Source of the DNA: a virus
Taxonomy: Duplodnaviria; Heunggongvirae; Uroviricota; Caudoviricetes
Reading direction: 5' to 3' (one strand)
DNA: 36,460 nt
Virus record (IMG/VR): IMGVR_UViG_2534681674_000020
Coordinates: 1 to 36,460 of that record
The notes below the pieces were generated by a model that saw only the letters and a program-made list of their open reading frames with translations, was not told the DNA's origin and searched no databases. Each line of letters starts with the position of its first letter. Within the stretch, counting starts at the first letter, position 1. The translations under genes were made by a program, and so were the position numbers. Positions 12,859-14,758 of this stretch are shown piece by piece.

Positions 12859-14758
12859 TATGATGAGCGCTGTCACAACTGCATTACAGCCCCTGATAAG
12901 GGCATTGCCGGTGACGCCAGTTGAATGGGCTGATCAAAATTATTATCTGCCTAAAGAATCTTCATATGGTGAGGGCGAATGGAAAACGCTGCCATTCCAG
13001 ATCGCCATCATGAACAGCATGGGGAATGATCAGATCCGCACTGTTAATCTGATTAAATCTGCCCGTGTTGGCTATACAAAGATGTTGCTGGGGGTGGTCG
13101 GGTATTTTATTGAGCATAAATCCCGAAACAGTCTGCTTTTTCAGCCCACGGATTCTGCCGCTGAAGATTTTATGAAGTCTCACGTGGAGGCGACGATTCG
13201 GAACGTGCCATGCCTGAAAGACCTTTCCCCATGGCTGGGTCGTAAACATCGTGACAATACTCTCACGCTGAAACGCTTTTCATCGGGCATCGGTTTCTGG
13301 TGCCTGGGCGGCGCTGCCGCCAAAAACTACCGTGAAAAATCCGTGGACGTGGTCTGCTATGACGAACTTTCCTCGTTCGAGCCGGATGTCGAAAAAGAGG
13401 GCTCGCCAACCCTGCTGGGGGATAAGCGTATTGAGGGGTCGGTGTGGCCAAAATCCATTCGCGGCTCGACGCCTAAAATCAAAGGCACCTGCCAGATCGA
13501 AAAAGCCGCTAACGAGTCGGCGCATTTTATGCGTTTTTATGTGCCCTGCCCGCACTGTGGGGAGGAGCAGTATCTGAAATTTGGCGATGAGTCCACGCCT
13601 TTTGGGCTTAAATGGGAGAAGGACAGCCCTGAAAGTGTTTTCTACCTCTGTGAACATCATGGCTGCGTGATCCATCAGTCTGAACTGGACCAGAGCAACG
13701 GGCGGTGGATCTGTGAAAACACGGGCATGTGGACCCGTGACGGTCTGACGTTTTTCAGCGCCCGGGGTGATGAAATTCCGCCGCCGCGCTCCATCACGTT
13801 CCATATCTGGACGGCGTACAGTCCGTTCACCACCTGGGTACAGATTGTCTATGACTGGCTGGATGCACTGAAAGATCCCAACGGCCTGAAAACCTTTGTG
13901 AACACCACGCTGGGCGAGACCTGGGAAGAGGCCGTGGGCGAAAAACTCGATCACTAGGTACTGATGGATAAGGTGGTGCGTTACACGGCGGCGGTGCCTG
14001 CCCGGGTGGTTTATCTGACGGCGGGCATTGACTCGCAGCGAAACCGTTTTGAGATGTATGTCTGGGGATGGGCTCCGGGAGAGGAAGCCTTTCTGGTGGA
14101 TAAAATCATCATTATGGGGCGTCCTGATGAGGAAGAGACGCTGTTACGTGTGGATGCGGCGATCAACAAAAAATACCGCCATGCGGATGGCACCGAAATG
14201 ACTATTTCCCGTGTCTGCTGGGACACCGGGGGGATCGATGGTGAAATTGTTTATCAGAGATCAAAAAAACACGGTGTTTTCCGGGGGCTGCCGGTAAAAG
14301 GCGCATCTGTCTATGGCAAGCCGGTGATCACCATGCCAAAAACCCGCAATCAGCGGGGCGTGTATCTGTGTGAAGTGGGAACGGACACCGCAAAAGAAAT
14401 TCTCTATGCCCGTATGAAAGCCGATCCCTCGCCTGCGGATGAAGCCACGTCGTATGCCATCCGTTTTCCTGATGATCCGGAGATTTTTTCGCAGACAGAG
14501 GCGCAGCAACTGGTGGCGGAAGAGCTGGTGGAGAAGTGGGAAAAAGGAAAGATGCGTCTGCTGTGGGATAACAAAAAGCGGCGTAACGAAGCGCTGGACT
14601 GCCTGGTGTATGCCTACGCGGCATTACGTGTGTCCGTGCAACGCTGGCAGCTTGATCTGGCTGTACTGGCAAAATCCCGGGAAGAAGAGACGACCCGGCC
14701 AACCCTGAAAGAACTGGCAGCGAAGCTGTCCGGAGGAGTGAATGGTTACAGTCGCTGA
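12830..14758 (+). pseudogene. A: Terminase large subunit (gpA-like) interrupted by an in-frame TAG at 13955-13957
   Basis: ORFs 12773..13957 and 13964..14758 are in the same frame, separated only by a TAG. Both halves are collinear with lambda gpA (PVEWADQNYYLPKESS...; ...VVYLTAGIDSQ...WDNKKRRNEALDC). Confidence 0.8.

Follow-up and report, generated by a model that had tools for sequence, protein, structure and literature searches.

An amber codon in the gene for the large terminase subunit of a defective lambdoid prophage and its probable origin at a Dcm methylation site

Does a lambdoid prophage with a stop codon in its terminase gene still have a packaging enzyme of its own, and how did the stop arise? 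The locus that raises these questions lies in the IMG/VR virus record IMGVR_UViG_2534681674_000020 (Caudoviricetes), a stretch of 36,460 nucleotides that was analysed over its whole length and is referred to below as the window. A lambdoid prophage is represented here by its late half, the early region being outside the window. An original prediction, made from the sequence of this stretch alone, had placed an in-frame TAG at 13955-13957 in the gene of the terminase large subunit, and the bases, the frame and the translation across the stop (...GEKLDH*VLMDKVVRYTAAVP..., the asterisk denoting the TAG) all confirm it. The accompanying view that a single base had changed is borne out by the nearest intact relative, that of the bovine isolate E. 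coli OkiPb01713, which is also the nearest complete genome: its gpA gene differs from that of the window at 3 of 1929 nucleotides, and one of the three is a C at 13955, i.e. CAG (Gln) in place of TAG. We consider it very likely that the window carries a genuine amber codon at Gln376, produced most likely by deamination of a Dcm-methylated cytosine, in a decaying, defective lambdoid prophage of an attaching-effacing/Shiga-toxigenic-type E. coli.

A TAG in a draft genome can also be a sequencing or assembly error, the true codon being CAG. The window shows 100% identity to AEZJ02000009.1 of GCA_000194215.2, a draft whole-genome shotgun contig, along 20,237 nucleotides, and a 61-mer centred on the TAG found an exact counterpart in only 1 of the 1,669 matching complete-genome E. 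coli records; 1,616 of these records fell into the 95-99% identity band, where every row among the matches listed has 98.4% identity, i.e. one mismatch. Both facts speak for an error. Against this stands an independent assembly from the SRA, Logan contig SRR8923406_41 (8,551 nucleotides), which contains the TAG and has 1 mismatch to the window and 0 in gpA, and the exact truncated product of 375 residues is encoded by 5 contigs. In addition, the finished genome of the O111:NM strain 2010C-3053 (NZ_CP077526.1, gene at 18905-20833) bears the same TAG, where the gene is annotated by the Prokaryotic Genome Annotation Pipeline (PGAP) as a pseudogene with an "internal stop", and substitution errors are much rarer than homopolymer insertions and deletions in the sequencing technologies concerned. 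An error is highly improbable on this evidence; the gpA TAG is a genuine, heritable nonsense mutation.

As regards the ancestral codon, the guess had been CAG or GAG, and the comparison across relatives gives CAG. This codon occupies position 376 in all five relatives that were read directly, the exception among the inspected copies being the O111:NM strain. The gpA copy of that strain shows eight other differences from the window, and it has private single-nucleotide polymorphisms 232 nucleotides upstream and 137 nucleotides downstream of the TAG, so that its stop is compatible with either recurrence or common descent. Its gpM is a divergent and intact allele. The O111:NM prophage also has IS66 and IS1203 insertions, at other places than the insertion sequence (IS) found in the window. 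A different internal stop is present in the gpA of the O103 strain RM8385 (NZ_CP028112.1), where codon 570 has changed from TGG to TGA at a site that is not a Dcm site; with this second genome of a Shiga-toxigenic E. coli carrying a nonsense terminase, nonsense pseudogenes of gpA are not rare. PGAP labels this equivalent, like the one in NZ_CP077526.1, as "internal stop".

The interrupted gene belongs, as a pseudogene, to the gpA / phage 21 gp2 family. The GpA_ATPase domain (PF05876) is matched at residues 48-293, before the stop (E=3e-56), while the GpA_nuclease model (PF20454) is split by the stop, with model positions 3-57 before it (E=2e-13) and 70-287 after it (E=2e-49). Both domains of the family, the full collinearity and the gene order Nu1-A-W-portal are thus present, and what the gene lacks is a single uninterrupted frame. 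The collinearity with lambda gpA that had been claimed for both sides of the TAG is upheld by an alignment in which the intact OkiPb01713 protein was used in place of the stop-bearing window gene: the two proteins align from end to end, with 66% amino acid identity over 639 residues and 5 gaps. Gln376 faces Glu376 of lambda and lies in a poorly conserved stretch just before the conserved YLTAGIDSQ motif. Lambda is not the closest phage in terms of nucleotide identity, as the gene is 96.6% identical to those of PhiR12-type phages and ~92% to gene 2 of phage 21, both nearer than lambda. A sequence search of the PDB with the terminase gave no match at E<=0.01.

The position of the stop suggests what the truncated protein would retain. 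A product of 375 residues would keep the regions homologous to the Nu1-binding N-terminus and the ATPase domain of lambda gpA, and it would lose the RNase-H-like nuclease centre and the prohead-binding C-terminal end. The nuclease centre includes the Asp of the GIDSQ motif, D401 in lambda gpA. A prophage with this protein would be without its own means to cut cos or to package DNA. The expectation that packaging is lost thus fares well, in the sense that the split domain, the lambda alignment and the textbook picture of lambda gpA point to a prophage with no working terminase of its own.

It could be argued that the two halves of the gene still make a working terminase in two pieces, with translation ending at the TAG, restarting at an in-frame ATG at 13964, and the ATPase and nuclease fragments assembling afterwards. 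The ATG is indeed situated six bases after the stop, an AGG at 13956-13958 lies 5 nucleotides upstream of it, and the stop falls into a part of low conservation that separates the ATPase region from the GIDSQ motif of the nuclease. The downstream open reading frame (ORF) of 264 amino acids, which gene callers treat as a gene of its own (in a Logan contig, for instance), contains most of the nuclease domain, and its expression by reinitiation is speculative. The Pfam nuclease model itself is cut by the stop, however; the ORF is continuous in the closest relative and, with a single exception, in the matching records of complete genomes, the remainder of the prophage is defective anyway (see below), and we know of no precedent for a split gpA-type terminase. 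We therefore give this arrangement very little credence.

The origin of the stop is suggested by its surroundings. The ancestral context, CAC CAG GTA, holds the Dcm recognition sequence CCAGG, which is kept in OkiPb01713 and in the four other relatives, and the C that became T is the inner one. The second in-frame TAG of the window, in the gene of the minor tail protein gpM, had been predicted to be amber as well, and it is: codon 79 of 109, at 25636-25638, has changed from TGG (Trp) to TAG in the context GCC TGG CGG, by a G to A substitution at 25637 as compared to OkiPb01713. Here the ancestral sequence contains CCTGG. Both lesions have exactly the signature expected of 5-methylcytosine deamination. 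In CCWGG it is the second C that Dcm methylates, and the T:G mismatch left by its deamination is a substrate of Vsr repair (PMC4924334). We propose that the Dcm enzyme of the host would have methylated the inner C of CCAGG in gpA, and that spontaneous deamination of the 5-methylcytosine would have given a T:G mismatch that escaped very-short-patch repair by Vsr; the gpM amber would have come from the same deamination on the opposite strand of the CCTGG site. Since deamination turns any Dcm site into either CTAGG or CCTAG, an in-frame change of this kind is necessarily amber, and this accounts for the fact that both lesions are amber codons. A prophage-borne C5 methyltransferase was considered as a source of 5-methylcytosine and rejected, as the sole methyltransferase of the window is of the N6/N4 type.

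The numbers are in agreement with this origin. The window has 73 CCWGG sites and only two CTAGG and two CCTAG sequences, and two of these four are the gpA and gpM lesions. GC-to-AT changes at Dcm 5-methylcytosine positions make up 3 of the 245 nonsense substitutions open to gpA and 2 of the 44 open to gpM. The joint chance of finding both ambers at such positions is 5.6e-4, or 6.8e-3 if transitions only are counted, and this excess over chance is based on only two events. If Dcm is ignored, two nonsense transitions, one in gpA and one in gpM, would both be amber ~35% of the time (34/59 x 9/15). The original prediction hinted that the pairing of two ambers is meaningful in itself; this assumption is not needed, given that both lie at CCWGG sites and that chance alone gives a pair of ambers at the frequency just mentioned.

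It is worthwhile to compare the two lesions with the classical hotspots of the lacI gene. In lacI, the amber hotspots correspond to GC-to-AT changes that affect the second C of Dcm sites of the form CCAGG (Coulondre et al. 1978, reviewed in PMC12606429). The change described by Coulondre, Miller, Farabaugh and Gilbert is the same as the one seen here, i.e. the inner C of CCAGG becomes T and gives a CTAGG amber, with the mirror change at CCTGG. The difference is that lacI was a selected laboratory reporter, whereas the present case concerns a natural prophage gene in which methylation and escape from repair are presumed. In this sense the Dcm origin of the two ambers would illustrate, in nature, a mutational hotspot known from textbooks, and no new question arises from it.

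The distribution of the gpM amber has to be read with care. The same TAG is found in one other complete genome, that of E. coli E105, where it is annotated "internal stop" and the gpA is intact; the E105 prophage adjoins a tRNA-Ser gene and the hya operon. An exact look-up of the 78-residue gpM product returned 202 blocks, a count that is unusable. Several draft contigs end two bases into codon 79, at ...GCCTG, which is the wild-type sequence, the end position being equivalent to 25637 of the window. The partial gpM products at such contig ends are identical to the amber-truncated protein of 78 residues, so that exact-protein look-ups overcount the amber allele. Among the gpM matches inspected, five were genuine TAG alleles and four were partial genes at contig ends. 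The gpA TAG shared with the O111:NM strain and the gpM TAG shared with E105 could each be an independent hit of the hotspot or an old allele spread by recombination.

Several points weigh against the reading that we favour. The sample is small, with two events. Any C-to-T change at a CAG codon or G-to-A change at a TGG codon yields TAG without the help of methylation, and the shared alleles of O111:NM and E105 could reflect common descent plus recombination instead of recurrence. When 61-mers with synthetic ambers at the gpA Dcm codons 336 and 365 and at the non-Dcm control codons 338 and 343 were compared with 5,426 E. coli genomes, each of them gave 0 exact matches; with all four queries at zero, controls included, this population test of the hotspot is without power. 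Finally, we infer rather than observe the activity of Dcm in the host, the loss of terminase function, which is deduced from homology with lambda gpA, would be subject to the same caution, and the gpA amber is presumed to be neutral.

A bolder reading can be built on the same sites, namely that the Dcm route programmes the immobilisation of prophages. The same CCWGG sites (gpA Q376 and gpM W79) would then be knocked out repeatedly and independently across lineages, and the knockouts would be kept because effector prophages (nleC, sodC) are thereby locked in the chromosome. Such a scheme would be of moderate interest if true; we regard it as unlikely.

The remaining contents of the window bear directly on the question whether the terminase lesion stands alone. 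The prophage is a mixture of phage-21-type head and packaging genes with a lambda-type tail. Upstream of the lysis genes there are a hok/sok module, a DUF968 gene, rusA, a Q-like DUF1133 gene, the gene of the N6/N4 DNA methyltransferase and a nanS-p-like esterase gene, and in the lysis region proper a holin gene is accompanied by the truncated lysozyme gene. Next come the genes for packaging and the head, in the order Nu1-A-W-B-C-D-E-FI-FII, and those for the tail, in the order Z-U-V-G-T-H-M-L-K-I, after which the cargo and tail-fibre end contains sodC, J, lom, stf, tfa and then the type III effector gene nleC. Most genes of the OkiPb01713 prophage are 100% identical to those of the window (Table 1).

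Table 1. Location of the genes, mutated sites and other features discussed in the text, in window coordinates
Feature	Positions	Strand	Basis or remarks
Terminase large subunit gene (gpA / phage 21 gp2 type), 642 codons, pseudogene by one in-frame TAG	12830..14758	+	ATG 12830, TGA 14756-14758
Amber codon, codon 376, ancestral CAG (Gln)	13955..13957	+	Bases read, frame translated, relatives compared
CTAGG, mutated Dcm site; ancestral CCAGG, inner methylated (putatively) C to T at 13955	13954..13958	+	OkiPb01713 TCAC[C]AGGT vs window TCAC[T]AGGT
In-frame downstream ORF, Met379 to end, 264 aa, most of nuclease domain	13964..14758	+	
Terminase small subunit (Nu1-type) gene, intact, overlapping gpA start	12379..12858	+	Pfam Phage_Nu1; 100% identical to OkiPb01713 gene
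Minor tail protein gpM gene, 109 codons, pseudogene, in-frame TAG at codon 79 (25636-25638)	25402..25731	+	
CCTAG, mutated Dcm site; ancestral CCTGG, bottom-strand inner C affected at 25637	25634..25638	+	OkiPb01713 GCCT[G]GCGG vs window GCCT[A]GCGG
Minor tail protein gpL gene, +1 G in G-run at ~26027, 179 aa instead of 232 aa	25731..26430	+	
nanS-p-like esterase gene (DUF1737 + SASA + DUF6645), split by 1-bp deletion in A-run at ~7711 (-1 frameshift)	6761..8697	+	
Lysozyme (R-type endolysin) gene, cut at nt 285 of 534 by IS element	10216..10500	+	
IS3-family element (IS629/IS1203-like)	10501..11806	+	Pfam rve/HTH_21; Rfam ALIL pseudoknot 10834-10950
sodC, Cu/Zn superoxide dismutase gene, intact, between tail genes I and J	27953-28480	-	
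nleC, type III effector protease gene (Peptidase_M85), intact, downstream of tail fibre genes	34854-35840	+	
hok/sok-type toxin-antitoxin module	767-1091		Rfam sok 767-941 (118 bits); Hok-like 51-aa ORF MKQQKAMLIALIVICLTVIV... ~936-1091

The lysis region has been affected by an IS3-family element that stands in place of ~2.3 kb kept in OkiPb01713 (its positions 10698-13000), and the missing part takes in what else belonged to the lysis cassette. The junctions of the element show no target-site duplication, which suggests an IS-associated deletion. The gpL gene carries eight substitutions together with its extra G within ~110 nucleotides (25985-26091), in a prophage that is otherwise ~100% identical to OkiPb01713. 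The cluster has the appearance of a short patch acquired by recombination with a divergent L allele, and the frameshift either came with it or followed it; the ORF of 179 residues recurs in two other assemblies. The esterase gene of OkiPb01713 is frameshifted too, at a place (~8350 in window coordinates) other than that of the window, and since the two sites differ the inactivations are independent.

The prophage thus has at least five lesions: the gpA TAG, the gpM TAG, the IS element with its deletion, the gpL insertion and the esterase deletion. A defective prophage is distinguished by a lambdoid gene order in which essential late genes have been inactivated by several lesions of independent origin, and the window shows this combination. 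The original prediction contrasted the gpA stop, as a point change, with decay, and in this respect it does not hold: at least three of the lesions (the IS element with the 2.3 kb deletion, the gpL +1 and the esterase -1 frameshifts) are such that no amber suppressor could fix them. As one of at least five lesions, the gpA amber is best seen as part of the neutral mutational decay of a prophage that is no longer self-propagating.

These lesions also decide how much weight can be given to suppression. If both ambers were functionally suppressed, by a host tRNA of the supE/supF type or by read-through, the phage would be conditionally viable. In favour of this, the two stops are of the same kind (TAG), wild-type gpA would be restored exactly by a suppressor that inserts Gln, and terminase is required in small amounts only. 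Natural coliforms with amber suppressors were reportedly described by Marshall and Levy in 1980. On the other side, a search of the 36 kb window with ARAGORN turned up no tRNA gene, and four genes of the window (two of them the holin gene and nleC) normally end in TAG. No suppressor could repair the frameshift of gpL or make up for the truncation of the endolysin gene and the deletion of the lysis genes, and the Dcm-site origin already accounts for the amber identity of both stops, which makes suppressors, engineering or recoding needless as explanations. Suppression appears very unlikely to us.

The comparison with the suppressor-sensitive (sus) mutants of lambda leads to a similar conclusion. 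The classical lambda sus mutants include ambers in A and M, and these Campbell-type Aam and Mam alleles affect the genes homologous to the ones discussed here, with no packaging and no tail tip expected in a sup0 host. The lambda alleles, however, are mutagen-induced laboratory mutations in a phage that is otherwise intact, whereas the present ones are spontaneous and sit in a prophage with non-suppressible defects. In a sus phage all lethal lesions are suppressible; here the gpL insertion and the IS element with its deletion are not. One could nevertheless imagine that the window stems from a laboratory amber mutant, or from a recoded phage that reads TAG as Gln, since TAG-to-Gln recoding of late genes is found in some gut phages. 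Neither fits a chromosomal prophage of wild isolates that has IS elements, type III effector cargo and near-identical relatives in cattle and human strains, and recoding is at odds with the late genes, which over ~24 kb have just two in-frame TAGs, one of them in place of Trp. A laboratory or recoded origin has next to no chance of being right. TAG recoding as such was rejected, with four genes ending in TAG, no tRNA gene in the window and few in-frame TAGs.

We return to the reading of a Dcm-derived amber in a decaying prophage, which is in line with what is known of enterohaemorrhagic E. coli (EHEC). The lambdoid prophages of EHEC are usually multiply defective, and some are packaged with the terminase of other prophages (PMC2669165). 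The present prophage resembles the defective pool described for the Sp prophages of O157 Sakai (Asadulghani et al. 2009, PMC2669165) in its effector cargo, IS insertion, deletion, frameshifts and point mutations. The difference lies in the terminase: the only terminase defect described for the Sakai pool affects nu1 of Sp4, which has an IS insertion, whereas here a nonsense codon is found in the large subunit. The copy number in E. coli genomes with this type of terminase has a median of two and reaches five. The prophage of the window could at best be mobile with help from co-resident lambdoid prophages.

The gene, the mutation and the element all belong to known categories, and nothing about them is new. 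In annotation, the pseudogene label that PGAP gives to the NZ_CP077526.1 allele is the appropriate one for this terminase gene too. As for its cargo, the prophage should be regarded as unable to transfer nleC and sodC by itself, and mobilisation of these genes by a helper prophage may still take place.

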